From a virus, in the IMG/VR virus record IMGVR_UViG_3300001097_000003, positions 1 through 64,000 of that record: 64,000 nucleotides of DNA, one strand, 5' to 3'. The position numbers and the translations under genes were made by a program. This document shows positions 30,497 to 57,700 of this stretch, one piece after another; within the stretch, counting starts at the first letter, position 1; each line of letters begins with the position of its first letter. Below the pieces are notes generated by a model. That model was not told the origin of the DNA. It did not search any database and was given only the letters and a program-made list of their open reading frames with translations.

Positions 30497-33400
30497 ATGT
30501 CAGATAATATAAACGATTGGAAATCAAAACTTCGTTCAGGAAGCGTAGGAACAGCAGGTAGTGTGGCAGTTGATTATGATGCTCAAACTAATATAGGTAG
30601 CAGAGCTTATCAAAGTATATCTACTTCTGAAGTTGTTGATTATGATAAACTACAGAAAGAAGAAGCTAAGAAAGAAGTTATAAAGCTTAATAAAGAGTTA
30701 AAAGAAGCCAATTATACTCCTGATGATATTGTGGAAATTAAGAAATCAGAAGATTTTTGGCATCAAGTTTTTGAAACAACTAAAAAGACAATTAAAAATT
30801 CTCCTTTTGGAGGACTTCTTAATGCTGTTGAATTAGGTACTTCAGCAGGTGCTGCTATATCCGGTACTGATGTTAATGCAGCTTCTCCCCAGACCAGATC
30901 GGTCAAAGAAATCTCACAAGAATATATTGATGCTTCTAATAGAAAGAAACTATTTGATAGGGTAAAACAAAACGGAATTGTTATTCAAACAGATGGTTCT
31001 AAAACTAGATTAGAAGATGAACTTCCTTATATGGAAGATATAAGTATATTTGACAGAATATTTAATTCTGTTTCTATTAATGAAAATAAACTTGGCAATA
31101 AGAAGTTTAGCATTAATTGGACTCCTACTTCATTTGAAGATTTTGCAGAAGCTGCTAAAGAAGGTAAAACAGATGCTAGTAAAGCAGGTGTTTATCAATA
31201 CTATTTTACAAAAGATGAAGATGGTAATGATGTATTAGGTAAAGCTAGATTTAATAATGTTGATCAACTTAGAAAAGCTGGTAACATATTTCTTAATAAT
31301 TTTGGTCCAGTACCTGTTAAGTCTGGATTTTCAAGAGAATTTAGTGCTGGTTTAGGTAATGCTGGAAGAGGACTTGTAAGAAGTTTATTAAACATTGGTG
31401 AAGGTGCTTATACTTTAGCTAATGAAGCTATTACTAAAGGTGGTCTTAATACAAAACAAGACGATATAAATATAAAAAGAGTAAATAAATTTGCTGATGA
31501 TTATAGGGCAAATGATGATCTAGATAATTACGATCCTGGAAAAGGTGGTACTGCGGCTTGGTTGGGTGGAGGAATAGGACAAGGTGCGGCTTCTCTAGCT
31601 CAATTTGCAGTTACCGGTGCTGCTGCTAAAGGTATTGGTGCATTAGTTAGTCGATCATTATCTGTTGCTGGTAAATTAGATAACTTAACTACTTTTGGTG
31701 CAGGAGCTGTTATGAACTTTGGCGAAGCTTATGAATCTGCTTTAAATGCTGGTTTATCTAAACAAGATGCTTCTAAAGTTGGTATGTTAACTGGTGCTAT
31801 TAATGGTATTATAGAATCTGCTGTAGGTACAAATAAGCTTACTAACTGGTTATCTGGTGGAGGTAATAGAGTACTTGCTCAAAGAGTACTAGCTGATCTC
31901 GGAGGAGATGCATCAGAAACTTCTTTAAAAAGAGTATTAAATACTTGGCAGAAACAAGCTTCTGGTAGAATTAATCAATTATTTAACACACCAATATTAG
32001 GTAGTGCTTTAGAAGAAGGTATTGAGGAATTTTCTCAAACTATGACTCAAAAGACTGTTGAAAATTTATATGATGCTTTTATATCAGATAGTAAAGAAGT
32101 TGGTAAAGATAAATTTGGTACTCAAGCTATATCTAAACATAGTATTATGGAGGCTCTTGAAGCAGGTTTCTTTGGTGCTATATTAGGTGGTGGTATGGGA
32201 GGTATAAAACATACTAAAGAACAATATGATAAATATGTAAATAAGAAAACATCTCATGATGAACCTATATTAAAATATTTAGCTGATGGTAATAAATCTC
32301 AGGTATTAGCTATGGTAGATACTTTATTTAGTACTGGAGTTATTAATGATAATCAAAAAACTTTTTATACACAAAAGATAAATAATCTTGCTGAATTAGT
32401 AGATAAAAATCAAGGAAAATTTGCTGCGTTAGATCAATATGGTCCAGAAGTAGCTACTAAAGTAAAAGCACAAGCATTAAATGTAATTAATGGAATTGCT
32501 AGTTTAGATCAAGAATTAGAAGTATTAGCTAAGAAAGAGCAAACTCCTGAAATAATAAAAGAAATTAAAACCAAAGCGGCTGAAAGAACTTTTTATTCTA
32601 ATTATTTAGAAACAGAATTTCTACCTAGAGAAGATGGTAAAGTAAATGCTGTTGAGTTTACTAATTATTTAAATCAAGAAGAAGTATTAAATAATAAATT
32701 TAATAGATTTCAAATAGATAATGATATTACTTCTACAGAAAGTAGTATATCTAATTATGAATCTAAAGCACAACAAAATCAAGAAGATTTAGATAATATT
32801 AGAGCTAAAAAAGGTAAAGCTGCTAAAGAGATTAAAAAAGAGTTAGACCTTAATAAACTTATAAAATCAGTTTATGAAAATAAATTAAAGCAATTACAAG
32901 AATTATCTCAAAAGAAAGTAGATGAATTTAATGAAATAACTTCTGATACTTATCAAGCTGATTTAAAAGATAAAGCAGATAAAACAGAAACTGAAGATAC
33001 AGCTCCTAAAGGTCCAACCGAAACATCAGCTCCTGTTGATATACAAGAAGGTATTGAAGATAATAGTGATGTTCAATTAGATAATGAAGAAAAACTTACT
33101 TATATAGGTGATCAATTATTATCTGAAAGAGATGAAATATTAAACGAATTAGAAAATCCTGATTTAGATTCTGAAACAAAAGCAGAACTAGAATTACTAT
33201 TACAAGAAATAGATAATGAAGTAGCTACAGTAGATAATAAGTTACAAATAGCTACTCAAGATTATAAGAATCAAGTAAGTGAAATAGTTGAAAAATTAGA
33301 TGCTTTTAATGACCTAGAAGACGTTGAATTAAATCAGGCTTACTCAGCTATTAAAAAAGAAATTGAGCAGCTTATACCTGCTTATAGAGATCAAGGATTA

Positions 33401-36400
33401 GATGTATCTGAATTACAATCACTCCATACTACAGTAACTAAAATTGTATTGGAAACAAGAGACAAACTTGAATCTCAAGCTAATGATGTTATAGCTCAAG
33501 AAGAGTTTGATAATAATGCTGCTGATAGAGATAATGAACCTTTAGTAAAAGGTATTAATTTCTTTGATAGAGTAGAAAGACTTAGATTTATGAATAATCA
33601 TAAAGATTATTGGTCTGATGAAGAATTTGATAAAATATTTTTAAATACTCCCATTGAAGAAATATTATCTCAGCTTGAGATGGTTTACTATACAGCAAAT
33701 GATCTAGGAATAGTTGCAGGAGCTGTTGTTGGTAAATGGAATAATGGTACTAATATTGTTAATCCTAAAATAGTTATATCATTAAGTTATCAAGGTAAAA
33801 ACTTAGGTAATTTAAATCAGTTAGATAGTTTTACTGTTACAGATCCATCACAAGTTAATCTTAGTGAACAAGGTTTATTAAATACACAAACTAGAAATAT
33901 TAAATTAATTGCTTTATTAAAAGAAAAAGGTAGATTAGATGCTGAAACTTTAAAATCTATTGGATTTAATTTATCTTGGAATGGAGATTTCTTTGTAGAT
34001 ACTAATATAGGTAGAACTCTTATTAAAGATTTTCCAGCAGCTAAACTAGTTGGTAAGTCAGGTAAATCTTTTTACTATATATATGATAGTGTTAACAGTC
34101 TTGAAATTACTAATTTATTTAGTGACCCTAATAATGAGTTAGATAATATTCCTGCTATTCCAGAAGGATTAAAAGAAAGATATGTAGTATTGGTTAGAGC
34201 TAATAATGGGAAACTATACTGGGTTGGTTCTCAAAATCAAGTAAATACAGATATTCAAGATACTTTATATAGTTATTTATTTGAACAAGTAGAGAAACTA
34301 AAAACTATTGAAGATCCTGCTCAATTTAAAAAACTTGTAGGAGATATAAATAGATACTTAGAAAATAATATCTTTGTAGCTACTAATGATCCTACTAAAC
34401 AAAATTCTCAATTACAATTAACTACACCTACACAAACAAGTAAATCTACACAAACAAGTAAATTTTATGGACTTAGACTTAAAGGAAGTAGAAAAAAAGT
34501 TCATTTAGATAATGTTAAATATTCTAATCTAAATGATTTATTAGCTGGATTAGAACTTACAGGAATTAACTTAAGAACTCCTTTAGTTAATAACGCATCA
34601 GTAGAAACAACAATAAATACTTTATCTATTAATTTAAAACCTACTGTACTTAAAAATCCTAGTGTAAGTATTAAGATTGATGAAGATAAATTAGATTCTT
34701 TATTAGTTAATAATCCTGTAGAAGAAACCGAAATAGTTGAATTTGCAGATGCTGTGGTAACTGAAGAAGTAACTACTCCTGATATTATAAACAATACTAT
34801 ATCTGATTTATCATCATTTGATTCTGAGTTTAATAATTTAAGTAAAGAAATTAAATTAGAAATTACTAATAAAGCTCAACCTTTATTAGATCAATTGACA
34901 ACAGCTTCTAAAATTAAGAAAGCTGGTATAGCTGTTAAAATAAGAGCTATTATTAATGAATATAAAGGTCCTTCTTCAGATCCTGTATTTTCTATAGGAA
35001 CCTCTGAAGAAATTATGGACTATAATGAGGCTGTTAATTGGATTAATAAAAATCTACCAGATACTATTTCTATAGATGACATTAACAAGTTATTAGGAGA
35101 TATAAAAAATAATGGTATAACATTTGGAGCTTTTGCTAATAGTGTTATATACTTATCTACAAAAGCTGCTAAAGGTACTGAATATCATGAGGCTTTCCAC
35201 GCTATATTCAGATTATTTTCTACAGATAAACAAATACAAGCAGCTTATAATATTATATCCAGAACTAATAAACCTACTAAAAAAGATTTAGAAGATTTAA
35301 GAAATAGTTCTTCTGTATATATTAATTATAATGATACTCAACTTCGTGAATTATTTTTAGAAGAAAAATTAGCAGATAACTTTAAAGAATATAGTAAAGA
35401 CTTTAATACAAATAATCCTCTTAAATCTATTTGGAATAAAATAATTAATTGGATTAACTTTATTACTGGTAATATGGATGAAGTACAAGCTTTATTCTAT
35501 AACATTAATAGAGGTAAATTTAAAAATGCTTTAATTACTAATAATAAATTTACTAATAATATAAATGAATCAGTATTCCAAATTTATAAAAAAGGTATAG
35601 ACGAAATTAATAAAACTACTATTGTTACTTCACAACTTGAAGGTCAGGCTGTATTAGCTAATTTAACTAGAAAGTTGTTACAACTTAAAATTAATAAAGC
35701 TTATCCTAATTTAACAGATGATAAAATTATAGATATATTATTAGCTGAAAAAGCTGCTTTTTATAGTTTAGACGATAATGCTTATTATGAACTTTTCTTA
35801 GATGAAAAAGGATTGTCAGATAATGATGAGTATATTGAGGTTATGACTAGAAATTTAGAACAGAAAAGAAATATATATACATTACCTGAAAACATAGCTG
35901 CTTTAAAGAAAGATATTAAATCTAAAATATCAATATTTGATATAGACACTGATATAGATAACGAAAATAGACAAAAAGAAATAGATGATGTTGGTGAAAA
36001 CTTTGATACAGATCCTTGGTCTATTGGTGGTGAAACATCATTTAGTAAAGTACTAAGAGAATACATATCATTAGTTGTTATTAAAACTAAAGATGAATAT
36101 GGTCAAGATATTGATGAAGCTGTAGATTTTAGTAAAGTATATAGAGGATTAGTTAGAGCATTAGCTGGTATAGAAGAAGATAAAGTACTTCCTAGATTTA
36201 AAGCACTAGCTGAATTTGATGAAGATATTAATGCTGTATTTAATCAGCTTATTCTTGATCTGGGTTTAACTAATGATAGTTTATTAGATGGTCAAAACAT
36301 AACTAAAAATTATGATTTATGGAGAAAATTTGTAACAGCATTTAATAATGAAAATGTTTCCTGGTATACTATATTACAATCTAATGAACAATCTAGATTA

Positions 36401-39400
36401 TTAGAAACAAATAATAATTCTGCAAAAGATATACAGTTTAATAGCTGGTTACAAAACTATAATATTAGTTTTGAAGATGGTAAATTTGATGAAGATGTAA
36501 AAAAATCAATTAACGCAGCTGCTGATGCTGTTAACAGAAGTGAAAATGCTATTGTTAATAGTTTAGCAGAAGCTAAAAAACTATCTTCTGAAATAAGAGA
36601 ACACTTTAAAAAACTATCTATAATTTTATCAGATGGTTACATAACTTATTCTTTACTTAAAAAATCTCCTTATCTAGGATTAGATCAAGAGGCTAAAGAT
36701 TTAATTAACGCTTTCTCAGGTGTTGAAGGATTATATGATGGTGGTAATATACCTTTTATAGTTACTGAATTTAAATCCGAATACAATCCATTTATAACTA
36801 CTAAAGATGATAAAAATAAAGAAAGAGGTGCTGTATCACGTTTAAAAAATATAGCTCAACAAAACGCTTTATTTGATCCCACAATAGGTGAAAGTAGTTT
36901 TCAAAATGCTGATGGTAAAAGTGTATACTCTATTATAAGACCTTCTTTTGGTTTAGTTAAACTCAGATGGTTAAGAAACACTATTACCAGAAACAAATTA
37001 TTACGTGATGAAAAAAATAAGAAGGATGATTTTATAGATCCTTTAGAAAATGTTGTGCTTAATCATTTATTAGGACATGAAAATTTAGATATTATTATGT
37101 CTAATCTTACTCCTTCTATGATTGATGGTTATAGAATTACTAGTATTGAAGGAGATATAGGTCAAACAGAAGAAGGCGAAGGTATTACATTTGGTAAGTT
37201 TAATTCCCAAGAATATTTACTTGCTGATATGCTTATGTTTTTATCTAACAGAAAAGTATTAAGTACTATAGATGAACAAACAGGTAAGACTATAAAGCTT
37301 GGTGAAAGTGCTATGATTAATATAGATCAGATGGAAGCTTCCAATACTGGTTACGCTGTATTTTTACCTGTAGAAGAATATAATGATGTTAATGATAATG
37401 TAACAGATATTTTATTTAATTACTTAGCTCAAGAAGTTATTAGAATTAATAAAGTTAAAAAACAATTTGGTAAAGAAGGTACTACTATATGGAATGGTTA
37501 TAATGATAAATTAGGAGCTAGAGGTTTCAAACTTATGGAATTTGCTGGTTATGATTTAGATGGATACATAGATGATATTACTTCTAAAGATAATGTTATT
37601 ACTCCAGAAGATGTATATAGTGAATTATTATATGAAAAAGATAAAATAGTACAATTAATAAAAATTAAATTAGAAAAAGATATACAAGATTATACTGATA
37701 TATTAAACGCTAATAATGTATTATCTTTATTACCTAATGTTGAGTTATTAAAAAGAAATTATTTAACAGAAGGTAAGTCAGAAATGACTCCTGCTCAAAT
37801 ATCTAAATTAGTAAATAACCAATATTTAAATGCGTATATTAATACTTTAGGTATCAATAACTTATTACTAGATAACTATTCTAAGAAAGTTAAAAATACT
37901 GTTGATTGGTTTAAACGTGCTAAGGGTATTATTGGCTCTGGAGCAGATATGGGTACAGGTACTACTAGAGTTGGTGTATATAAAGAACCTTTAAAATATA
38001 TTGATGTTAAAAATTTATCAGAACTTGAAAGAGATAAATTAATAGAAGAAGAAAGATTAAGATTAGAAGATGGTTCTTTAAATGATAAAGCTAAGGCTAA
38101 ATCTTTAAATACATTTATTAAACAAATAGATAAAGGTAAGATACAAATAGCTGATGCTCAATCTTATGTTACATTAGATCATAAAATATTACAACTACAG
38201 AGATGGGGAAGATTTCCTAAGCAAGTTTCTGATATATATGATAAATTAAAACTTGGTGAAGAAATTACATGGGATGAGAAAAATACATTAGAAGATAATA
38301 ATGCAGCTTTAAATTCAACAAAGACTGTATCGTATAATGGTGATTTTTATTTTAAATTATCTGAAATAGCTTTATCTCCAAGATTGGTAGGTAAAACTGA
38401 TGAATCAGAAAATGTAATACTTGATGATCAAGGAAGACCTGCTGAAGCAAAAGAAGGATTTGAATACTTATTTAATAAGTATATTAGTATGTTAGATCAA
38501 GGTGTAGATCAGGCTTTACCTGAATCTGCTTCTAAAATGGCTACAATAAGTCCTGCTGAATATGCACAAGATGGTAAATTTGATTTTACTGGTTCTGTTA
38601 TGGAATTAGAAAATAAATTTAAGAGATTGCAAGTTGAAACTCCTTCTGGTAAAAGATCTATTATCCACGGTACACAATTAATTCAATTAGTACATAGTGA
38701 ACAATCAGATAATTTAGAAATAGATTTTAAATATAACTCTGATATAAAAACTGTAGGTCAACTTAGGGAACTATATAGAGGGTTACTAGCAGATAATCGC
38801 TTAGAGGGCTTTAAAACAGCTCTGGCATATATGAGAGATCCTATATCTGGAGAAGTTAATTCAAAAGAGTTAACTAAAAAGTTTTATCAAACAATAACTG
38901 AGTCTGGTTCAGATGAAGTATTATCTAATTTCTTTAGTCCTGATCCCATTACTGGTGAAAGACAATTCAATTGGAATTTAGGGCCTATAGTTAATAAAGC
39001 TGAACAATTATTTTTATCTCATTTTAGTAAAGGAGTATTATCTCAAAAAGTTCCAGGACTTAAAGTATCTTTAGTATCTGATGCAGGTATATTAGTTAAA
39101 GATGCTAAAACTGGTAAAATGAGATCATTAGCTCATATGCAATTAGATGATGATGGAAATTATTATTCTGAATGTTTATTACCTCCTTTTGCAGAAGAAT
39201 TACTCGGTAAAAATCCTAGTGATGCTGATGTACAAAAGGTTTTAAAAATGTTTGGAGTACGTATTCCTACTCAGGATAAACACTCTATGATTAGTTTAAA
39301 AGTAGTAGGATTTCTTCCTATGGAATATGGTTCTGTTGGTATATTTCCTAAAGAAATTGTATATCTATCAGGAGCAGATTTTGATATTGACTCTGAATTT

Positions 39401-42301
39401 ATCCATACTCCAGATTTTTATGTGGAAGATAATGGAAGAATTAGATTATATGGTGAAGCTTCTACTGATGAAAATAAATATCAAGAGTATATAACTTGGA
39501 ATTTAAAGAATAATAAATTATTAAAAAATAGAATAAATACTTTAGGTTCGTTAGAAGCTGCTTTGTCTTCATTAAATATGCCTACTACCGCATTAGAATT
39601 TATAGTAAACAATACTATTAATGTAGGATTAAATAATAATCTTATGTTAGAAGCTCAAATTAAATTTTTAACTAATGATTATGTAAGAGAAAGAGCAGCT
39701 ATTATTCCGTCATCATTATCTTCTATTAAAGATGTGGCAGATATTGTTATGGAAGCTTTAAATATAGATCAAAATCAATCAATATCTCCTAATACTCCTT
39801 TAGCTAGATATAATGCTAATAGAAATAATATGGAAGGTAAAGATGGTATTGGTCCAGTTGCATTATCTAATGTAACCCATGCTTTATTATCTACTTATGA
39901 TCAGAAGTTATTTTCTGAGGTATCTTTACCTACTATTAATGGTAAATTAGCTAATGGATTTGGAGGTATTTATACTATAGATTCTGATAGTAATAGAAAG
40001 AATGATAATATATCTACTCTATTATCAGCTATGACCGATAATGCTAAGGAACAATTAGCTAAGTTATTAACTTTAACATTTAATTCTAGAACAGCTGATG
40101 CTAATACTTTGCCAGTAGCAGCTTATATGTTGTCTGTAGGATATAGTATGGAAGAAACAGTATTGTTTATAAACCAACCTACTATCAGAGCATTTATTAC
40201 TAACGATCAAAATATATATAAAAAATTAGAAGAATTACAAACAGAACTAGAAGTACACTTAGGTGTTTCTAAAAATAAAAAAGATGCTTATAAATTAGCC
40301 TATCAAAAATTTAGTGCTCAAAACATTAAACCTTTTACTTCTGAAAATTTAATTTCTTCATTAAATGAAAATGATTTAGATATATATGATCTTCCTCATA
40401 TAAGATTAGCGGAATCAATATTTAATCAGATGCAATTACAAGCTGGTTATAATTCTAATGTATCTGCATTAATGTCTTTGAATAAAGGTGTTAAATCAAC
40501 ATTTGATGATAATTTAAGATTAGAAACTGTATTAGATTCTTTACAATTAAATTTTTTATATACATTTATTAATGATGATGTACTTACCTATGATGATTTA
40601 ATAACTAAATTATTAGAAGAAAATTATATTAGAGTTGTAGGTAATAAAATATATAAAGATATTAATATGCCTGTATTCGAAACAGATGATAATATTAATA
40701 AGACACCATTTGATGCTAGAGAAACTTTATTAAACGATCCTAATACAATACAAAATATTATAATCTATAAAAAGATTATGGATACTTCTAAGGAATTCTT
40801 CCTTATGAATACTCCTGTATTTAAAAAACTAAGAGGACTAGTTAATACTAATTCTAAAAATTTAATTCCTTATTTTATGAATAAGGCTAATGAAGCTTAC
40901 TTAGAAACTAATTTTCCTGAAAAATATCAAGAGCTTATAACTGCTAAAGATAACGCAGCTTATATGATTCATAAATCTGGAAATAATTCTATAGGTAGAG
41001 ATTTATTTAAATTAAAAAAAGATCCTGACTTTAGAAACAATCTTTTAATCAAGATGTTGTCATTAAAACAACCTAGTAGTTCAAGTAAGGTTATTAGTAT
41101 TGAATTTCCAACTAGAATAAAAGCACAAGGAGATTTCTATACAAATGTAAATAATGCTTTCAAAGAGTTATTTATGAATCCTAAAACTACTGATTTTGCT
41201 AGGAAATTATATTATTATTCTTATTATAAAGACGGATTACAATTTAAAAACAAATCGTTTATTAATACTATTCCATCATGGGTATTTAGAGATGTATCTA
41301 AATCTTTAGATAATTTAAATAATGATTTTAAAGATACAAATTATGAAAGTTATACTTCTTTAAGTAGTAATTTAACTAATAATATTATAGATATGTTAAC
41401 TTCATTAGCTGTATTAGAAAATCATCATGATAAATTACAATATATAGGAATTCATCCTGATATTAAAGCTAATTTAAAAATTACAGATAATGAAAAACAT
41501 ATTAATTATGTTATTAAATTTGATATATTAAAACAAATAGATATTACTAGTGCTGCATCATTTGAAGCATCATTAAAAGAGTTACATAAAATTACAGGCG
41601 ATAATAAATTAGTAGCTTTATCTAAGAAGGGTATACCTTATAACTTAGCAGTATATGAAGGTGCTACTAACCCAGTTACTCAAGAAACTGTTACAAGAGG
41701 TAGATTAATAGAATCTGTTAAAGCTTTTATTGGTAATGGAGAACTTAAAACATTAACATTAGAAGAACTTGTTGATTTCTATATGGATAAAGGATTCTTA
41801 CCTAAAGCAATAGAAGTTAATTATAGTAAAGTAAGAGTTATTGAAGATACAGCTTTTGATTCAACTATTACAGATGTACAGTTTATAAATTCTTATTCAA
41901 GAGTAGTTAAAAATATAGATAAAGAAAAACAAATATATAATGATAATGAACCAAAGGTAAGTATTGTACCAGATACTAATGAAAATTTGGATAATACAGA
42001 AAATGATGTAAATTATCAAAAAAATCAAACTAGTTCAGACGCTGGTATTTTAGCTTCTGAACAAACAGTTAGAGATTTAGCTGCTACAATATCTGATAGA
42101 ATAGGTTTTGATGTTGATGAACTGCCTTTTCAAAAAGTACAAAATCTTTTGGAAAATTCAGAAAATAATAGTATCTTTGATGATATATATATATCAATGC
42201 AAAAAGCAATAGATGATTCTTTTGATAAAGAAGATAAATTAAATAAACTAGATTCAGATGTAGATAATTTTACAGATGATTCTAATAACCCATTATGTTA
42301 A
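30497..42301 (+). CDS. giant multidomain protein: candidate virion-packaged RNA polymerase (double-psi beta-barrel, ADFDID) fused to a zincin-like HExxH module
   Basis: Uninterrupted 3934-codon ORF in an AT-rich genome. Domain order: Gly-rich hydrophobic N-terminal region, long acidic coiled coil, HEAFH at residue 1564, then a beta-prime-like RIPTQDKHS...(33 aa)...GADFDIDSEF segment with the first Asp at residue 2961. Confidence 0.75.
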   Translation: MSDNINDWKSKLRSGSVGTAGSVAVDYDAQTNIGSRAYQSISTSEVVDYDKLQKEEAKKEVIKLNKELKEANYTPDDIVEIKKSEDFWHQVFETTKKTIKNSPFGGLLNAVELGTSAGAAISGTDVNAASPQTRSVKEISQEYIDASNRKKLFDRVKQNGIVIQTDGSKTRLEDELPYMEDISIFDRIFNSVSINENKLGNKKFSINWTPTSFEDFAEAAKEGKTDASKAGVYQYYFTKDEDGNDVLGKARFNNVDQLRKAGNIFLNNFGPVPVKSGFSREFSAGLGNAGRGLVRSLLNIGEGAYTLANEAITKGGLNTKQDDINIKRVNKFADDYRANDDLDNYDPGKGGTAAWLGGGIGQGAASLAQFAVTGAAAKGIGALVSRSLSVAGKLDNLTTFGAGAVMNFGEAYESALNAGLSKQDASKVGMLTGAINGIIESAVGTNKLTNWLSGGGNRVLAQRVLADLGGDASETSLKRVLNTWQKQASGRINQLFNTPILGSALEEGIEEFSQTMTQKTVENLYDAFISDSKEVGKDKFGTQAISKHSIMEALEAGFFGAILGGGMGGIKHTKEQYDKYVNKKTSHDEPILKYLADGNKSQVLAMVDTLFSTGVINDNQKTFYTQKINNLAELVDKNQGKFAALDQYGPEVATKVKAQALNVINGIASLDQELEVLAKKEQTPEIIKEIKTKAAERTFYSNYLETEFLPREDGKVNAVEFTNYLNQEEVLNNKFNRFQIDNDITSTESSISNYESKAQQNQEDLDNIRAKKGKAAKEIKKELDLNKLIKSVYENKLKQLQELSQKKVDEFNEITSDTYQADLKDKADKTETEDTAPKGPTETSAPVDIQEGIEDNSDVQLDNEEKLTYIGDQLLSERDEILNELENPDLDSETKAELELLLQEIDNEVATVDNKLQIATQDYKNQVSEIVEKLDAFNDLEDVELNQAYSAIKKEIEQLIPAYRDQGLDVSELQSLHTTVTKIVLETRDKLESQANDVIAQEEFDNNAADRDNEPLVKGINFFDRVERLRFMNNHKDYWSDEEFDKIFLNTPIEEILSQLEMVYYTANDLGIVAGAVVGKWNNGTNIVNPKIVISLSYQGKNLGNLNQLDSFTVTDPSQVNLSEQGLLNTQTRNIKLIALLKEKGRLDAETLKSIGFNLSWNGDFFVDTNIGRTLIKDFPAAKLVGKSGKSFYYIYDSVNSLEITNLFSDPNNELDNIPAIPEGLKERYVVLVRANNGKLYWVGSQNQVNTDIQDTLYSYLFEQVEKLKTIEDPAQFKKLVGDINRYLENNIFVATNDPTKQNSQLQLTTPTQTSKSTQTSKFYGLRLKGSRKKVHLDNVKYSNLNDLLAGLELTGINLRTPLVNNASVETTINTLSINLKPTVLKNPSVSIKIDEDKLDSLLVNNPVEETEIVEFADAVVTEEVTTPDIINNTISDLSSFDSEFNNLSKEIKLEITNKAQPLLDQLTTASKIKKAGIAVKIRAIINEYKGPSSDPVFSIGTSEEIMDYNEAVNWINKNLPDTISIDDINKLLGDIKNNGITFGAFANSVIYLSTKAAKGTEYHEAFHAIFRLFSTDKQIQAAYNIISRTNKPTKKDLEDLRNSSSVYINYNDTQLRELFLEEKLADNFKEYSKDFNTNNPLKSIWNKIINWINFITGNMDEVQALFYNINRGKFKNALITNNKFTNNINESVFQIYKKGIDEINKTTIVTSQLEGQAVLANLTRKLLQLKINKAYPNLTDDKIIDILLAEKAAFYSLDDNAYYELFLDEKGLSDNDEYIEVMTRNLEQKRNIYTLPENIAALKKDIKSKISIFDIDTDIDNENRQKEIDDVGENFDTDPWSIGGETSFSKVLREYISLVVIKTKDEYGQDIDEAVDFSKVYRGLVRALAGIEEDKVLPRFKALAEFDEDINAVFNQLILDLGLTNDSLLDGQNITKNYDLWRKFVTAFNNENVSWYTILQSNEQSRLLETNNNSAKDIQFNSWLQNYNISFEDGKFDEDVKKSINAAADAVNRSENAIVNSLAEAKKLSSEIREHFKKLSIILSDGYITYSLLKKSPYLGLDQEAKDLINAFSGVEGLYDGGNIPFIVTEFKSEYNPFITTKDDKNKERGAVSRLKNIAQQNALFDPTIGESSFQNADGKSVYSIIRPSFGLVKLRWLRNTITRNKLLRDEKNKKDDFIDPLENVVLNHLLGHENLDIIMSNLTPSMIDGYRITSIEGDIGQTEEGEGITFGKFNSQEYLLADMLMFLSNRKVLSTIDEQTGKTIKLGESAMINIDQMEASNTGYAVFLPVEEYNDVNDNVTDILFNYLAQEVIRINKVKKQFGKEGTTIWNGYNDKLGARGFKLMEFAGYDLDGYIDDITSKDNVITPEDVYSELLYEKDKIVQLIKIKLEKDIQDYTDILNANNVLSLLPNVELLKRNYLTEGKSEMTPAQISKLVNNQYLNAYINTLGINNLLLDNYSKKVKNTVDWFKRAKGIIGSGADMGTGTTRVGVYKEPLKYIDVKNLSELERDKLIEEERLRLEDGSLNDKAKAKSLNTFIKQIDKGKIQIADAQSYVTLDHKILQLQRWGRFPKQVSDIYDKLKLGEEITWDEKNTLEDNNAALNSTKTVSYNGDFYFKLSEIALSPRLVGKTDESENVILDDQGRPAEAKEGFEYLFNKYISMLDQGVDQALPESASKMATISPAEYAQDGKFDFTGSVMELENKFKRLQVETPSGKRSIIHGTQLIQLVHSEQSDNLEIDFKYNSDIKTVGQLRELYRGLLADNRLEGFKTALAYMRDPISGEVNSKELTKKFYQTITESGSDEVLSNFFSPDPITGERQFNWNLGPIVNKAEQLFLSHFSKGVLSQKVPGLKVSLVSDAGILVKDAKTGKMRSLAHMQLDDDGNYYSECLLPPFAEELLGKNPSDADVQKVLKMFGVRIPTQDKHSMISLKVVGFLPMEYGSVGIFPKEIVYLSGADFDIDSEFIHTPDFYVEDNGRIRLYGEASTDENKYQEYITWNLKNNKLLKNRINTLGSLEAALSSLNMPTTALEFIVNNTINVGLNNNLMLEAQIKFLTNDYVRERAAIIPSSLSSIKDVADIVMEALNIDQNQSISPNTPLARYNANRNNMEGKDGIGPVALSNVTHALLSTYDQKLFSEVSLPTINGKLANGFGGIYTIDSDSNRKNDNISTLLSAMTDNAKEQLAKLLTLTFNSRTADANTLPVAAYMLSVGYSMEETVLFINQPTIRAFITNDQNIYKKLEELQTELEVHLGVSKNKKDAYKLAYQKFSAQNIKPFTSENLISSLNENDLDIYDLPHIRLAESIFNQMQLQAGYNSNVSALMSLNKGVKSTFDDNLRLETVLDSLQLNFLYTFINDDVLTYDDLITKLLEENYIRVVGNKIYKDINMPVFETDDNINKTPFDARETLLNDPNTIQNIIIYKKIMDTSKEFFLMNTPVFKKLRGLVNTNSKNLIPYFMNKANEAYLETNFPEKYQELITAKDNAAYMIHKSGNNSIGRDLFKLKKDPDFRNNLLIKMLSLKQPSSSSKVISIEFPTRIKAQGDFYTNVNNAFKELFMNPKTTDFARKLYYYSYYKDGLQFKNKSFINTIPSWVFRDVSKSLDNLNNDFKDTNYESYTSLSSNLTNNIIDMLTSLAVLENHHDKLQYIGIHPDIKANLKITDNEKHINYVIKFDILKQIDITSAASFEASLKELHKITGDNKLVALSKKGIPYNLAVYEGATNPVTQETVTRGRLIESVKAFIGNGELKTLTLEELVDFYMDKGFLPKAIEVNYSKVRVIEDTAFDSTITDVQFINSYSRVVKNIDKEKQIYNDNEPKVSIVPDTNENLDNTENDVNYQKNQTSSDAGILASEQTVRDLAATISDRIGFDVDELPFQKVQNLLENSENNSIFDDIYISMQKAIDDSFDKEDKLNKLDSDVDNFTDDSNNPLC
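34428..34463 (+). repeat. perfect 18-nt tandem duplication inside the giant ORF
   Basis: CTACACAAACAAGTAAAT occurs twice in tandem (34428-34445 and 34446-34463), encoding STQTSK twice. Confidence 0.9.
35186..35200 (+). other. HExxH (HEAFH) zincin-like metal-binding motif in the giant ORF
   Basis: In-frame CAT GAG GCT TTC CAC, in the context AAKGTEYHEAFHAIFRLF. Confidence 0.5.
39248..39391 (+). other. RNAP beta-prime-like double-psi beta-barrel catalytic segment
   Basis: MFGVRIPTQDKHSMISLKVVGFLPMEYGSVGIFPKEIVYLSGADFDID, compared with bacterial beta-prime NRAPTLHRLGIQAFEP...NADFDGD. The DFDID codons are at 39377-39391. Confidence 0.7.
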
Positions 42302-54341: not shown

Positions 54342-54890
54342 TTAAAACGGTAAATCATCATCCTGATCCTTAGAATTGCTATTTAAAGCATTAGACTGAG
54401 TATCTGTTTTATCTGTAATCCTAGGTTCTACATCTTTTCCTACCGGATTAACAAATCCAGCAAACCTCAACATAGGTCTAGTATTTACATATGTTTTACC
54501 ATCTTTTTCTTTTGTATAAGTCTCACCATCTACAATAACTGTTTGAGTTTTACCTACTAATTTAGCAGATAAGGCTGTTGCTACTTGAGTAGCTAGTTCC
54601 ATCCCGTCTCCGGTAAATCCTCCAGTCATTTTAGCTCCTGTAAATTTCTCTACAAGGTATTGTACTCTGGGTAGAGCACCAGCAGATAACCAGAATCTTT
54701 CGTTAAAAGAAGCATCTGCCTCTTTAGATTCAAACGTTACTGCTACTCCAGCATTTCCTGTACCTGCAACTATTGGTTCTACACCACTAATCATCAAAGT
54801 ATTAAGTCCTGGTTTTACTATTTTAAATGTTGATTCCTTAACTTCACTTGTTGCACTATCTACACTATCAAAATTTAAATTTGTTGTCAT
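54342..54890 (-). CDS. single-stranded DNA-binding protein candidate with bacterial SSB-type acidic tip
   Basis: 182 aa ending in ...SKDQDDDLPF (compare bacterial SSB DDDIPF). It lies between the recombinase and primase genes and is followed by a strong hairpin. The body is not recognisably a canonical OB-fold SSB by eye. Confidence 0.55.
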   Translation of the reverse strand: MTTNLNFDSVDSATSEVKESTFKIVKPGLNTLMISGVEPIVAGTGNAGVAVTFESKEADASFNERFWLSAGALPRVQYLVEKFTGAKMTGGFTGDGMELATQVATALSAKLVGKTQTVIVDGETYTKEKDGKTYVNTRPMLRFAGFVNPVGKDVEPRITDKTDTQSNALNSNSKDQDDDLPF

Positions 54891-54912
54891 ATTTTTCTCT
54901 TTCTTTTAATTA

Positions 54913-55041
54913 TTAATTATTATTTATTTTTCTAAATATACTTTTTATATATCCTGTTCTAACAGAAGTTAACTTAGCTATTAACCAAGGTTTGTTTTCT
55001 AAATGTTTATATTTAAAAACTTTTTTTTGTACTTCTGTCAT
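54913..55041 (-). CDS. small hypothetical protein (42 aa)
   Basis: ATG at 55041-55039 comes 3 nt after the exon-2 stop. Sequence: MTEVQKKVFKYKHLENKPWLIAKLTSVRTGYIKSIFRKINNN. Weak support. Confidence 0.3.
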   Translation of the reverse strand: MTEVQKKVFKYKHLENKPWLIAKLTSVRTGYIKSIFRKINNN

Positions 55042-55044
55042 TTA

Positions 55045-55181
55045 TTATACTACTACTATTGAATCACCATCTTCAGTTAATTGTACAACTGGAGCGTTGT
55101 GAGTAAATGATGAAAGTTCTTCCGTTGTATATAAACCTCCAATTAAATCAGGACACACCCGATTAGCACCTTTACTAAAAC
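55045..55181 (-). CDS. RecT/Redbeta-like single-strand annealing protein, exon 2
   Basis: Open frame with no start codon, encoding (C)FSKGANRVCPDLIGGLYTTEELSSFTHNAPVVQLTEDGDSIVVV*. It is in frame with exon 1 only after removal of 55182-56072. Confidence 0.65.
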
Positions 55182-56072
55182 CGCTTGATCTTTTATATTT
55201 CTATAAAAGGCAGACTATATCTTAATTATTCTTTTTCTATTTCTTACTATAATTTTTAAATCAATTTTATCATTTAATTTATATCTCCATACATATCCTT
55301 TAGCAGTAATGTTAATTTCATTACATGAATATTGTATGGTTCTATGATTACAATGCATATTAGTAGCAGCTTCTCTAATTCCTTTAAATTCTCTTATAAA
55401 AATACCTTCTTTATTATACTGTAAAATTGGTTTTCTAAGTTTGTTTTTAAAATCTTCAGATTTAGGTAAGTTTTTCCTAGCTGCTGACATTTGTAATCTA
55501 AATTCTTTACTAAATAAATAACCAGCTGAACCAGATACTTTATTATCTTTATTATATAACATATTTTTATAATGTTTATAACAAAAACTCAAATATAATT
55601 GTTCAGTATCTTTAATATTTTCTGATATTTCTATAATATCAAAATCAAAAGAATGTTCTAAATATTTATTAAAAGAAGTTTGTAAATGATTATTACTATG
55701 TTTATTATTTCTTAATTTTGAGAAATGATATAGTAATCTTTTTCTAATATTGGAAGATGATCCAATATAGAATTTATTATTTAGTTTATTAATTATAATA
55801 TAAATACCTTTGGTATTTTGTAAAATAGTAGAATAATTCCTACCTTTTCCTAGGCTACTAAGCCAAGTACTCCCTTGCGGGATAGTCGTTGAACCTTCCT
55901 CATGTACTAATATATTTAGAGGCTTGGCTGCTGATTGTCTATTTTTTGTTATAGCCATATAACAAATATACAAAATATTTTCAAACTTTCATAATCTACT
56001 TTCGTGATTATTGTAGTTATTTTGTCTTTAAGAGTTTCCAGCAATTAAATAGGTTACGAGGCATTTATGTTT
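55182..56072 (-). mobile_element. group I intron (subgroup IA-like) carrying a GIY-YIG homing endonuclease ORF
   Basis: Core elements: P AAUUGCUGGAAAC (56046-56034), Q AAUCAGCAGCC (55936-55926), R GGUUCAACGACUAUCC (55895-55880), S AAGAUAUAGUCUGCC (55223-55209). P1 pairs exon GAGGU with intron GCCUC, with a U.G pair at the 5' splice site. P10 pairs exon-2 GUUU with intron AAAU. The terminal intron nucleotide is G. GC-rich hairpins CCC-GCAA-GGG and GGCU-UAGU-AGCC follow R. Confidence 0.75.
55215..55973 (-). CDS. GIY-YIG homing endonuclease (I-TevI-like), intron-encoded
   Basis: KGIYIIINKLNNKFYIGSSSNIRKRLLYHFSKLRNNKHSNNHLQTSFNKY closely parallels I-TevI SGIYQIKNTLNNKVYVGSAKDFEKRWKRHF...LQRSFNKH. 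It has a C-terminal HTH-like AATNMHCNHRTIQYS. The first roughly 50 codons of the open frame overlap the intron core, so the true start is uncertain. Confidence 0.85.
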   Translation of the reverse strand: MYICYMAITKNRQSAAKPLNILVHEEGSTTIPQGSTWLSSLGKGRNYSTILQNTKGIYIIINKLNNKFYIGSSSNIRKRLLYHFSKLRNNKHSNNHLQTSFNKYLEHSFDFDIIEISENIKDTEQLYLSFCYKHYKNMLYNKDNKVSGSAGYLFSKEFRLQMSAARKNLPKSEDFKNKLRKPILQYNKEGIFIREFKGIREAATNMHCNHRTIQYSCNEINITAKGYVWRYKLNDKIDLKIIVRNRKRIIKI

Positions 56073-56556
56073 ACCTCCAGTACATCATAACCCCCGGTTG
56101 TTTTTTCCAATTATCTTTTGATGTCAAACCTAAAGATTGAGCATCACTATATTTGTAACTTACATCTTCTTCAATTCCATCCCTGTAAAATCTAATTACA
56201 GTTTCAGCATCTTTTTTACCATCTAAACCTTCAAAAACTTCAAAGTCTTTAATTGTTTTAGTTCTAACACCACCTTTAAAACAAAGTGATGCCATACCTT
56301 TTGGCTTAAGGGCAGGTTTACCCATGATAACATCAATCATTTCAAATGATGCCATTGTTTGTAAATTCAATTCTTTTCCTTTTAATGCAATTACTACAGC
56401 CATTTCTGGTGTTTTAATTGACGTAGGTAAAAGACCACTTTTAATCCAAGTTTCAGCTTGTTCCAACATCTGATTTTGTATATCAGTTTGTCTAGTTAAA
56501 CTTGTATTAACACTATTTGCTACTTCTAGTACTTGTAATTCTTCTTCTTTCTTCAT
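56073..56556 (-). CDS. RecT/Redbeta-like single-strand annealing protein, exon 1
   Basis: 161 codons ending ...DNWKKQPGVMMYWR, then an in-frame TAA created by the first intron nucleotides. The internal segment LNLQTMASFEMIDVIMGKPALKPKGMASL resembles the SSAP core. Confidence 0.6.
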
Positions 56557-56566
56557 CTATATCTGT

Positions 56567-57700
56567 CTATCTTATTTTAAACTCTTCTTCTATTTGTTTA
56601 TAATCACCTTCTGTCATTTTGTTTGGTAACTCCCTAAAGTAATTAACTGCTCCATGAAATAATAAATGGTCTGAACATGATCCTGATCCATCTCTATTAA
56701 ATATTACTATTAACTCTCTATAATGATCTACCAATCTTTTTATATTGTAACCTTCATAACTTTCAATCTTAAATCTAGCGGGTCCAAATAGACCTAACAT
56801 TAAATTACAATCTCTACCTACTAATTTACAATCTCCTAATCCATCAGGTGAAGGTTTTAACTTATCTATAATTGTATTACCACTAAAAGTATACTGTTGT
56901 TGCTCTTGTCCAGCAGCTTGCTGTTGAACACCTACTACACAAGTTTTATATTTATCTCTTAGTTTTAATGCATGGCGAGAACTAAAATCATGTATAGCAT
57001 CAAATAATGTTTGACCTTTTTCAGGTAACATAACATTATAATTATCTACAATTACAATTACTAGTTCATTTGGGTTATTTGCTACATATCTACTCTTTAT
57101 CCTCCTTTTCGTTACTGTTTTACCATCTTCTTCTAGCCAATCTAGATCTTTATATTCCCAAGTACCGTTTTGTTCATAGTAATCACTTACATACTTATAA
57201 ATACCATAAGGATTTCTTATGTTGTCTATAATCTCTACAGTTTCTTCAAATTCTGTAAAATAAGTATCATACTCTTCTAACAAACTTTCTGTTTTATCAT
57301 CTAGTATTCTATTTTCAAATACAGATAATAAATCATCAGGAGAAACAATTATACCTTTATCTTTAAATATTTTATAAGATAATATAGACATAATCTTTCT
57401 TTCTCTACTCATTTCTAAGGAGAAATATATTATTTTTAAATCTATATTTTTAGGTTTATATTTCTTTACGAATTCGTAAGGTTCGTATACAAAAAGATAA
57501 TCACATATTTGTGTTTTACCAACTTTTGAGTTTGCTGTAACAATAATATATTTTTCTTTTTGTATTCCCGGTACTACTGAAGATAATCCGGGTAGATTTT
57601 TCCAAGGTATACAATTGTATCCTCCGTCTAATCTTATTTGTTTATTCTCTTTTATTCTATTTCTTACTCTATTAAATAGACTTATTCTTTTCTCTCTCAA
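56567..57700 (-). CDS. DnaB/gp4-family replicative helicase (RecA-like ATPase)
   Basis: 377 aa with Walker A ANSKVGKT, Walker B LVIVIVDNYN and VVGVQQQAAG. It sits in the replication block next to the loader-like and recombinase genes. Confidence 0.7.
   Translation of the reverse strand: MREKRISLFNRVRNRIKENKQIRLDGGYNCIPWKNLPGLSSVVPGIQKEKYIIVTANSKVGKTQICDYLFVYEPYEFVKKYKPKNIDLKIIYFSLEMSRERKIMSILSYKIFKDKGIIVSPDDLLSVFENRILDDKTESLLEEYDTYFTEFEETVEIIDNIRNPYGIYKYVSDYYEQNGTWEYKDLDWLEEDGKTVTKRRIKSRYVANNPNELVIVIVDNYNVMLPEKGQTLFDAIHDFSSRHALKLRDKYKTCVVGVQQQAAGQEQQQYTFSGNTIIDKLKPSPDGLGDCKLVGRDCNLMLGLFGPARFKIESYEGYNIKRLVDHYRELIVIFNRDGSGSCSDHLLFHGAVNYFRELPNKMTEGDYKQIEEEFKIR

Follow-up and report, generated by a model that had tools for sequence, protein, structure and literature searches.

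A predicted mobile group I intron of the phage IA type in the RecT/Redβ-like annealing-protein gene of a crAss-like phage

Among described systems, the closest to the locus reported here is the IA2 group I intron of the T4 td gene, which interrupts a phage DNA-metabolism gene, that for thymidylate synthase, and which carries the P7.1 and P7.2 hairpins between P7 and P3'. Translation of the first td exon stops at the start of the intron, and the endonuclease encoded by the intron, I-TevI, is modular, with an N-terminal GIY-YIG domain and a C-terminal DNA-binding module. I-TevI lies in P6a of the td intron. The wider phage IA family has members in Staphylococcus Twort-like, Bacillus SPO1-like, T-even, Flavobacterium FPSV and Enterocloster phages; most of them have no ORF in P8, and some carry an endonuclease in the P5 loop instead. 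Group I introns with endonuclease ORFs have been described from core replication and structural genes of crAss-like phages, the same phage order as the one analyzed here; they were detected through the protein domains of the endonucleases, the RNA was not modeled, and RecT was not named as an intron host gene (Yutin et al. 2021, PMC7886860). An overlap of endonuclease ORFs with the core of their introns has also been documented (Hausner et al. 2014, PMC3984707, Fig. 2b).

The DNA analyzed here is a 64-kb stretch from a virus, referred to as the window. Its minus strand from 56072 to 55182, 891 nt, is very probably a mobile group I intron that belongs to the classic IA type of phages and splits a RecT/Redβ-like annealing-protein gene, part of the replication module of a crAss-like phage. 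The assignment draws on matches to the Rfam group I family, on covariation, and on a junction defined by intron-less alleles. Like the td intron, it lies in a phage DNA-metabolism gene and is predicted to be self-splicing; unlike it, the interrupted gene encodes an annealing protein and the phage is a crAss-like phage of Bacteroidota. An earlier note, made from the sequence alone, had regarded the phage group as unusual for such introns. This view is outdated, as many group I introns are already known in crAss-like phages (Yutin et al., PMC7886860) and the group is therefore not unusual; the RecT-gene intron is an element of an ordinary type. The crAss-like identity of the phage, which that note had also proposed, agrees with the large terminase subunit, 30-39% identical to those of Cellulophaga phi14:2 and of the uncultured crAss-like phages cr118_1 and cr55_1. 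The window also contains a 3934-aa ORF at 30497-42301, a tRNA search of the window found none, and one contig of the same phage is 92 kb long. Megablast of the locus against INPHARED returned no near-identical phage genome, the sole match being 32 identical nt in the intron core, shared with Enterocloster phages.

The spliced host protein would be 206 aa long. It matches PHROG 561, "RecT-like ssDNA annealing protein," at 2e-7, and tblastn aligns it, unbroken over the junction, with RecT-like genes from phages of Propionibacterium, Gordonia and Arthrobacter, down to 6e-13, as well as with crAssphage gp18, a "putative RecT." The Pfam RecT profile (PF03837) aligns with residues 124-189, spanning the junction, at 12.7 bits (E=0.09) with a cut-off of 24, and we therefore name the protein RecT/Redβ-like rather than a Pfam RecT member. 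A profile search of PDB sequences with the host protein returned no RecT or Redβ. The top PDB match to an AlphaFold model of an intron-less homologue (P0001, 78% identical, pLDDT 86.9) is the N-terminal domain of λ Redβ (7UJL), a match of moderate strength (prob 1.00, TM 0.48/0.60, 152 columns, E=0.012). The RecT/Redβ-like identity, as first suggested in the earlier note, is weak at the sequence level, and the modeled fold may agree with it.

Exon 1 (56073-56556, minus strand) was delimited from the ORF list and by alignment to intron-less homologues, and comprises codons 1-161 and the first base of Cys162. The ORF to which it belongs, 56556-56071, ends abruptly at ...KQPGVMMYWR. As in td, the exon-1 stop in unspliced RNA lies at the start of the intron, the TAA being formed by exon T56073 and intron AA and straddling the 5' splice site 56073|56072. 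Exon 2 (55045-55181, minus strand) is a 137-nt frame that opens with the remaining two bases of Cys162, ends with the stop at 55047-55045 and encodes (C)FSKGANRVCPDLIGGLYTTEEL...; it has no start codon upstream of its conserved ...FSKGANRV. Intron-less homologues of 200-211 aa form about 57 clusters, 57-83% identical to the predicted product and dozens of them 70-83% identical; in these the protein runs on past MMYWR and the junction reads MMYWRCFSKGANRVCPDLIGGLY. The predicted spliced protein, ...YWRCFSKGANRV..., is identical to these homologues over the junction. At the DNA level, intron-less alleles read TGGAG(G/A)T|GTT uninterrupted, with TGGAGGT|GTTAT in the L001 allele, and the predicted spliced junction is ...TGGAGGT-GTTTTAGT..., ...GTACTGGAGGT-GTTTTAGTAAAGG.... 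The earlier note had described both frames and their in-frame joining and had proposed an alignment with intron-less homologues; the homologues carry the junction that it foresaw.

Gene callers list a truncated 161-aa protein and a separate endonuclease gene at this locus, and GIY-YIG genes of the free-standing type are common in phages. Both facts would suit a locus without any intron, in which a free-standing homing-endonuclease gene had split the annealing-protein gene into two independently expressed pieces or had destroyed it. However, with exactly 56072-55182 deleted, the homologous protein is recovered residue by residue, exon 2 offers no start codon before the conserved FSKGANRV, and a complete group I core flanks the ORF on both sides. 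We regard such an insertion as extremely improbable.

Both halves of the intron match the RNA family RF00028 (Intron_gpI). The 5' half, 56053-55839, matches model positions 50-157 (P3 to P3') at 45 bits (E=7e-10) and the 3' half, 55225-55193, matches model positions 219-251 (P7', P9) at 24.2 bits (E=1.2e-3), the two matches being collinear on one strand. A comparison of 55182-56072 with this model, as the earlier note had proposed, therefore gives two matches that are significant by E-value, but neither half alone reaches the curated gathering cut-off of 50 bits, because about 590 nt inserted in the P8 loop break the match in two. An Rfam scan of the whole 64-kb window at the gathering threshold gave no matches, and neither did E-value-mode scans over 64 kb and 18 kb, because the filters discard the split match; the large scans therefore say nothing against further introns. 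Within the 64-kb window the exact R 13-mer is found a single time, as is the exact S 11-mer, and motif scans for R and S found no second intron there besides 56072-55182. The RecT gene of a relative (L085) is interrupted at an upstream site by another group I intron, which scores 57 bits with RF00028; this shows only that a group I intron split by an endonuclease is able to pass the 50-bit cut-off.

All strings and coordinates given in the earlier note are present on the minus strand, to which all intron features below belong, and the group I core elements P, Q, R and S that it had recognized are backed by the RF00028 matches to both halves. P1 (56058-56077) pairs exon GAGGU (56077-56073) with the internal guide GCCUC (56062-56058) and sets U56073.G56062 at the 5' splice site, exactly at 56073|56072 as the note had it; P1 with this U.G pair is also recovered by minimum-free-energy folding (z = -3.2). 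In P10, the guide AAAU (56066-56063) pairs with exon-2 GUUU (55181-55178), and guide and exon 2 co-vary, with AAUAAU facing GUUAUU in L004. The 5' strand of P3, CCUAUUU (56053-56047), placed by the Rfam alignment and pair counts, is followed by the P element AATTGCTGGAAAC (56046-56034), which includes the P4 5' strand UGCUGG (56043-56038). P5 and its extension (55938-56033) consist of P5 itself (UCU 56033-56031 with AGA 55940-55938), P5a (ACAAAAUA 56025-56018 with UAUUUUGU 55977-55970) and an extension hairpin (55966-55945) whose loop has the endonuclease AUG (55958-55956) at its edge. The Q element AATCAGCAGCC (55936-55926) includes the P4 3' strand UCAGCA (55934-55929) and precedes P6 (CCUC 55922-55919 with GAGG 55901-55898). 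The R element GGTTCAACGACTATCC (55895-55880), with the P7 5' strand GACUAU (55887-55882), is followed by the P7.1 hairpin CCC-GCAA-GGG (55881-55872), the P7.2 hairpin (55867-55850) and the P3 3' strand AGGUAGG (55845-55839). P8 (55224-55838) has a stem of AAUUAUUCU (55838-55830) and AGAAUAAUU (55232-55224) and a loop of 597 nt (55829-55233) that contains the body of the endonuclease gene. The S element AAGATATAGTCTGCC (55223-55209), with the P7 3' strand AUAGUC (55218-55213), leads into the P9 hairpin CUUUUAUA-GAAA-UAUAAAAG (55209-55190), and the intron terminates in the G at 55182 that the note had named.

The P7.1 and P7.2 hairpins between P7 and P3' place the intron in subgroup IA (phage type), a feature that it has in common with td; the absence of P2 from its modeled fold is a difference from td. 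With the wider phage IA family it has in common P5a and the P5 extension, P6, P7.1, P7.2 and P9, whereas the distance from R to S is 65-84 nt in most of that family and 672 nt here. A 28-mer over R and P7.1 is found exactly in 76 IMG/VR stretches and is also identical in Enterocloster phages, and blastn with the 5' half of the ribozyme finds matches in 163 phage records.

Covariation was assessed in 16 related introns, with the P8 loop trimmed, at 61 proposed pairs, using slid-partner controls and 500 shuffles. The proposed pairs are formed in 80.3% of cells, compared with 40-44% when the partners are slid, and two-sided changes occur at 40 of the 61 pairs. The covariation score is 0.338, versus 0.07-0.13 in the controls, and none of the 500 shuffles reached the observed values. 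P5 shows compensatory changes from C-G to U-A, P6 is 97% paired with two-sided changes at all four pairs, and P9 is 85% paired with two-sided changes at all eight. The two hairpins behind R, which the earlier note had taken for P7.1 and P7.2, likewise display compensatory changes: P7.1 is 100% paired with two compensated pairs, and P7.2 is 73% paired, six of its pairs showing two-sided changes. P7 is invariant across the 16 introns and therefore uninformative for covariation. The P8 helix is kept in relatives with a different sequence.

The same evidence bears on whether the intron, although real, might have decayed, so that it splices poorly and the annealing-protein gene is a pseudogene or makes a truncated 161-aa product. 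The absence of P2, an Rfam score under the gathering cut-off and a large ORF over the core that could disturb folding would be in keeping with decay, yet the core helices are all intact and co-varying, and P1 and P10 fit the flanking exons, P10 with the covariation in L004. Compared with five alleles, the intron-bearing L004 among them, exon 2 has a pN/pS of 0.22-0.49 at a pS of 0.5-0.74; judged by these ratios it evolves under purifying selection at nearly saturated synonymous sites, and this extends to the comparison in which both alleles carry the intron. At the splice site, intron-bearing alleles retain the Arg codon AGG that P1 requires, whereas three of four intron-less alleles have AGA. 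Exon 1 of the same phage is also present on three contigs from several sources. Decay of the intron is, in our estimation, very unlikely.

The intron ORF (55215-55958, minus strand) encodes 247 aa from ATG 55958 to TAG 55217-55215, as defined by the ORF list, domain matches and start-codon analysis. Residues 50-117 (55811-55608) match the Pfam GIY-YIG domain (PF01541) at 6e-10, above the cut-off, and residues 176-209 (55433-55332) match NUMOD1 (PF07453) at 8e-8; the ORF also matches the I-TevI catalytic domain structures 1MK0/1LN0 at 8e-9. Y53, Y64, R74, H78, E119 and N136 are invariant columns in the endonuclease alignment. The product is thus predicted to be an I-TevI-like GIY-YIG homing endonuclease, as the earlier note had also concluded, with a C-terminal NUMOD1 DNA-binding module, the modular organization of I-TevI itself.

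That note had placed the ORF between R and S, in the P8 position, with its UAG stop inside S. The domain does lie in the P8 loop and the stop does fall within S, but the frame and its only ATG begin upstream of Q. Since the only canonical start, ATG 55958, is in the P5 loop, the ORF runs through P5', P4', P6, P7, P7.1, P7.2, P3' and P8, and residues 1-49 are encoded by the ribozyme core. This differs from td in that the body of the ORF is in the P8 loop, and its frame would start in the P5 loop and cross the catalytic core. The ORFs of Hausner et al. 2014 (PMC3984707) likewise extend into ribozyme elements at both ends and stop within P7'; here, the overlap covers the elements from P5' to P3' and both P8 strands, ~150 of roughly 300 ribozyme nt, and the arrangement is conserved over introns of two different host genes.

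Comparison of related introns indicates that the endonuclease ORF most likely starts at AUG 55958. The upstream-start arrangement is common to the window intron and five related introns. In all six introns with a P8-loop endonuclease an ATG is found 14-22 codons upstream of R, and none of the six has an in-frame ATG, GTG or TTG between R and the GIY motif. One of them, L090, uses another frame across Q and regains the original frame at R. The six introns with the upstream ATG share one ancestor and are therefore not independent. It is possible, if rather doubtful, that translation begins instead at a non-canonical codon in the P8 loop, for example, ATT 55826-55824, giving an endonuclease of ~203 aa that starts just before the GIY motif, as in I-TevI, with the upstream frame a by-product of RNA conservation; this alternative concerns expression only. 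The family profiles and I-TevI do match only from residue 50 of the 247-aa ORF, homologues that are free-standing or encoded in a loop start with MxSGIY, the codon position of ATT in the window is taken by ATC in L004, and the purine-rich AAGGTAGG of P3' lies 12 nt upstream. Furthermore, about 9 of 40 ORF-less relatives also happen to have an ATG in an open frame upstream of R. In most ORF-less relatives, however, there are in-frame stops upstream of R, and the ATG and the unbroken frame are kept in all six introns with endonucleases that are only 32-39% identical outside the closest pair. The kept frame crosses the variable P6 loop, P7.2, P3' and P8, which differ in length and sequence, the frame shift of L090 across Q is reversed before R, and ORFs overlapping intron cores have a documented precedent (PMC3984707, Fig. 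2b).

We therefore lean, cautiously, toward translation from AUG 55958 through the core, an arrangement that would be conserved in a lineage of crAss-like-phage introns that has entered two different recombination genes, the RecT-like and the AAA_24 ATPase gene. Roughly half of the ribozyme would then also be coding, and folding and translation would be mutually exclusive on any one RNA molecule. Peptides such as AITKNRQSAAKPLNILVHEEGSTTIPQGSTWLSSLGK are predicted only with this upstream start. An internal promoter was considered and rejected: a Bacteroidota-type -7 box, TATATTTG, is located at 55970-55963, 12 nt before ATG 55958, but TAnnTTTG occurs ~56 times per strand in the AT-rich window and is not enriched upstream of genes. 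The -7 box before the endonuclease ATG recurs in L088, L089 and L091.

The distribution of the intron is patchy: many alleles of the gene are intron-less, and some have a different intron at an upstream site. Its patchiness among closely related alleles lends indirect support to the predicted cleavage and homing. The same intron and ORF are found at the same site in L004-L006, with host proteins 71% identical and endonucleases 64% identical to those of the window. The RecT-like gene of relatives is interrupted by introns at two or more sites, and these introns carry endonucleases of two different families. A candidate third insertion site, P0067/L086, was discarded, the contig being a chimera that switches to unrelated GC-rich DNA after ...DNWK. 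Related introns are present in AAA_24 ATPase genes (L088-L091) and may be the "ATP_43b" introns of Yutin et al. 2021. The RecT-like and AAA_24 ATPase intron hosts occupy the same genomic position, just downstream of a DnaB-like helicase.

We propose a model for the behavior of the intron by analogy with T4 td and I-TevI. The RecT-like gene would be transcribed with the intron in place, and ribosomes on exon 1 would halt at the UAA spanning the 5' splice site. The RNA would fold into P1-P9, and an external guanosine would attack after U56073, at the U.G pair of P1. P10 would align exon 2, and ligation of the exons after the terminal G 55182 would produce the 206-aa protein ...YWR-C-FSKGANRV.... 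The intron would also yield the 247-aa GIY-YIG and NUMOD1 endonuclease, which in a mixed infection would cleave copies of the gene that lack the intron, close to the insertion site; for an enzyme of the I-TevI type the cut is expected some 20-25 bp upstream of it. Repair by recombination, with the intron-bearing allele as template, would then copy the intron in, which is homing.

General understanding of group I introns is unchanged by the finding of an intron in a RecT-like gene. As gene callers split the RecT-like gene and genome-scale Rfam scans miss the intron, it is likely that recombination genes of crAss-like phages are systematically mis-annotated. The RecT/Redβ-like annealing protein joins the list of phage genes hit by mobile introns, and the invaded gene is predicted to be part of the recombination machinery that is needed for homing itself. 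If the overlap of the endonuclease frame with the ribozyme is truly translated, it would offer a compact natural example of RNA folding competing with translation, and would constitute a built-in switch between splicing and mobility.

The intron-less homologues of the RecT/Redβ-like annealing protein place the splice junction exactly. On the minus strand, the exon-1 ORF (56556-56071) ends with ...KQPGVMMYWR at a TAA stop built from exon T56073 and intron A56072 and A56071; the terminal intron base is G (55182), and exon 2 (55181-55045) lacks any start codon upstream of its conserved FSKGANRV segment. The predicted spliced protein is 206 aa long. Dozens of intron-less homologues (200-211 aa, 57-83% identity) continue past MMYWR and, in the alignment, cross the junction uninterrupted as ...MMYWRC(F/Y)SKGANRVCPDLIGGLYTTEEL..., reproducing the junction that an earlier note had proposed. 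Intron-less DNA is continuous at the site, with TGGAG(G/A)T followed directly by GTT(A/T)T, and the proposed junction is the sole one that preserves both the frame and the conserved Cys. Selection on exon 2 is purifying (pN/pS 0.22-0.49 at a synonymous divergence of 0.5-0.74, the pair of intron-bearing alleles included). Although it lacks a start codon of its own, this exon is therefore still translated, and its translation depends on splicing. The exon-1 ORF of this phage is present on three contigs from several sources, and the interruption is therefore not an assembly artefact.

The splice-site Arg codon (56076-56074) is AGG in both intron-bearing alleles, that of the window and that of L004, a relative with the same insertion site, and AGA in three of the four intron-less alleles compared (L001, L002, L083 and L085). 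P1, which pairs GAGGU with GCCUC, requires AGG at this codon; either co-conversion or selection for P1 pairing fits this pattern.

That the interrupting RNA is a group I intron, as had been claimed, is backed by RNA family matches, fold and covariation. Reading the minus strand of 54800-56900 confirmed all of the strings and coordinates reported earlier, including those of the P (56046-56034), Q (55936-55926), R (55895-55880) and S (55223-55209) elements; in the 64 kb window, R (as an exact 13-mer) and S (as an exact 11-mer) are both unique. At the gathering threshold, Rfam gave no matches in the whole window. In E-value mode, a scan of 54900-56300 gave two collinear minus-strand matches to RF00028, one at 56053-55839 (45 bits, E=7e-10, model positions 50-157) running from P3 through P7 to P3', and one at 55225-55193 (24.2 bits, E=1.2e-3, model positions 219-251) covering P7' and P9. 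The model segment without a match is P8, and approximately 590 nt are inserted at exactly that place. E-value-mode scans of 18 kb or 64 kb drop even the 45-bit match of the 1.4-kb scan because of speed filters. As a practical caution for genome-scale annotation, endonuclease-split introns are easily overlooked.

With the P8 loop deleted, the intron fold has z = -3.2 and recovers P1, P5a, P6, P7.1, P8 and P9; in the recovered P1, GAGGUA is paired with UGCCUC, and the splice-site pair is U.G. For covariation, the helices of the window intron were projected onto an alignment of 16 related introns trimmed of the P8 loop: the window intron, that of L004, four from AAA_24 genes of other phages and ten ORF-less IMG/VR relatives. 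Standard pairs fill 80.3% of the cells, compared with 40-44% in controls whose partners are shifted by 1-3 columns; two-sided changes occur in 40 of 61 pairs, and the covariation score is 0.338 versus 0.07-0.13. None of 500 shuffles reached the observed values. The cleanest helices are P5, P6, P7.1 and P9; P7 is invariant, and P3, P7.2 and P8 are noisier because their register differs among subfamilies. The P10 guide and exon 2 co-vary, with AAAU/GUUU in the window and AAUAAU/GUUAUU in L004.

The host protein is RecT/Redβ-like, in line with the original assignment, on evidence that is real but not strong. Pfam RecT scores 12.7 bits against it, under the cut-off of 24 bits, and a profile search of PDB sequences found nothing. 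The PHROG RecT-like match is at 2e-7, and tblastn matches to annotated RecT-like phage genes go down to 6e-13 and continue unbroken across the junction. For an intron-less homologue, the AlphaFold model (pLDDT 86.9) has the λ Redβ N-terminal domain as its top PDB match (probability 1.0, TM 0.48/0.60, E=0.012). The DNA is that of a crAss-like phage, as previously assigned: its large terminase subunit is 30-39% identical to those of Cellulophaga phi14:2 and uncultured crAss-like phages. The window also holds a 3934-aa ORF and a replication module of DnaB-like helicase, primase and exonuclease; the INPHARED phage collection yielded no near relative or near-identical genome.

The intron-encoded protein is an I-TevI-like GIY-YIG endonuclease, as first thought. 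Its ORF contains a GIY-YIG domain (6e-10) and NUMOD1 (8e-8), matches homing-endonuclease PHROGs, and aligns with the I-TevI catalytic domain 1MK0 (8e-9; ORF residue 50 to I-TevI residue 3), with the conserved GIY-YIG positions intact. Its TAG stop (55217-55215) is within S. The P8 position given by the earlier note holds for the ORF body, which lies in the loop of the minus-strand P8 stem (AAUUAUUCU at 55838-55830 with AGAAUAAUU at 55232-55224), but not for the first ATG: this lies at 55958, upstream of Q and within the P5 loop. No in-frame ATG, GTG or TTG occurs in the window ORF from R to the GIY motif. This pattern is common to all six related introns with this endonuclease in P8 (window, L004 and the AAA_24-gene introns L088-L091), although endonuclease identity among them is only 32-39% outside the window/L004 pair. 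In each, an ATG lies 14-22 codons upstream of R and the frame is unbroken across regions of variable sequence and length; in L090, Q is read in a different frame and the common frame is regained before R. An open frame with an ATG upstream of R occurs in only about 9 of approximately 40 ORF-less relatives. A non-canonical start inside the P8 loop is possible, for which ATT at 55826-55824, with ATC at the same codon in L004, is a candidate. Because canonical starts are missing between R and the GIY motif, and the ATG and open frame are kept in six introns and rare in ORF-less relatives, we consider it moderately probable that translation starts in the P5 loop and runs across the ribozyme core. 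Overlap of an endonuclease ORF with an intron core is in itself documented (PMC3984707, Fig. 2b). About half of the ribozyme core may be conserved as dual-coding sequence.

In the folded RNA, positions 55966-55945 form a 9-bp hairpin (UUUGUUAUA-UGGC-UAUAACAAA) with the endonuclease AUG at the loop edge. ORF-less relatives keep a conserved ...AUGGC... at the equivalent spot of the P5 extension, so the start codon may have been recruited from a structural motif. The sequence TATATTTG at 55970-55963, 12 nt upstream of the ATG, resembles the Bacteroidota -7 box TAnnTTTG; it is found again in L088, L089 and L091, a hint of an internal promoter. The motif shows no enrichment upstream of genes, with about 56 copies per strand in the AT-rich window.

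The distribution of the intron is patchy. L004-L006 (host protein 71%, endonuclease 64% identical) and L003 share with the window the intron, its endonuclease and its insertion site. In other relatives of the RecT-like gene, a different group I intron (L083:2485-3923 and L085:666-2050; Rfam 34.4 and 57 bits) with an HNH/EndoVII-like ORF of 176-180 aa (phrog_3322, about 1e-32) is inserted further upstream, before ...GMA.L.RKGGV. Introns have thus entered the RecT-like gene at two or more sites and with two endonuclease families, which makes it an intron hotspot; the literature found does not name it as an intron host. A candidate third site, L086:2230-2532, was rejected as a chimeric assembly, in which the AT-rich RecT-like gene gives way abruptly, after ...DNWK, to unrelated, GC-rich DNA. 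In other phages, closely related ribozymes interrupt AAA_24 (PF13479) ATPase genes (L088:1945-3524, L089:1951-3777, L090 and L091), and their GIY-YIG ORFs are 33-39% identical to that of the window. In L089, the AAA_24 gene directly follows a DnaB-like helicase, the position that the RecT-like gene has in the window; L088 has no such Pfam match, and L090 and L091 do not extend far enough to show this. Counterparts of these introns in Yutin et al. 2021 may be the 'ATP_43b' introns.

The 28-mer GGTTCAACGACTATCCCGCAAGGGAGTA (R and P7.1, 55895-55868) is exact in 76 IMG/VR contig stretches (L007-L082), which come from widely differing environments and vary greatly in GC content. Most lack an ORF in P8; some have a P5-loop ORF running through Q and R in the same frame to a stop in P7.1 or P7.2. 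The ribozyme 5' half matches 163 phage records, including Staphylococcus, Bacillus, Escherichia, Pseudomonas, Flavobacterium and Enterocloster phages. The window intron therefore belongs to the classic phage IA-type family. In L087 (Enterocloster phage CB457P2, OP172754.1, 7670-10285), a 32-nt identity to the window intron core sits between two 'hypothetical protein' CDSs, beside a CDS annotated 'intron-associated endonuclease 1'; the arrangement suggests an unannotated group I intron that splits a gene of a Firmicutes phage.

The observation of the earlier note is confirmed and its interpretation as a self-splicing mobile intron is supported. By analogy with T4 td/I-TevI, exon-1 translation would halt at the UAA on the splice site, guanosine would attack after U56073, and exon 2, which P10 aligns, would be ligated to exon 1 after G55182. 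The endonuclease would cleave intron-less alleles of co-infecting relatives, and repair templated by the intron-bearing allele would copy the intron in. If translation of the endonuclease ORF begins in the P5 loop, ribosomes have to unfold the ribozyme, and translation and splicing would therefore be mutually exclusive on one molecule.
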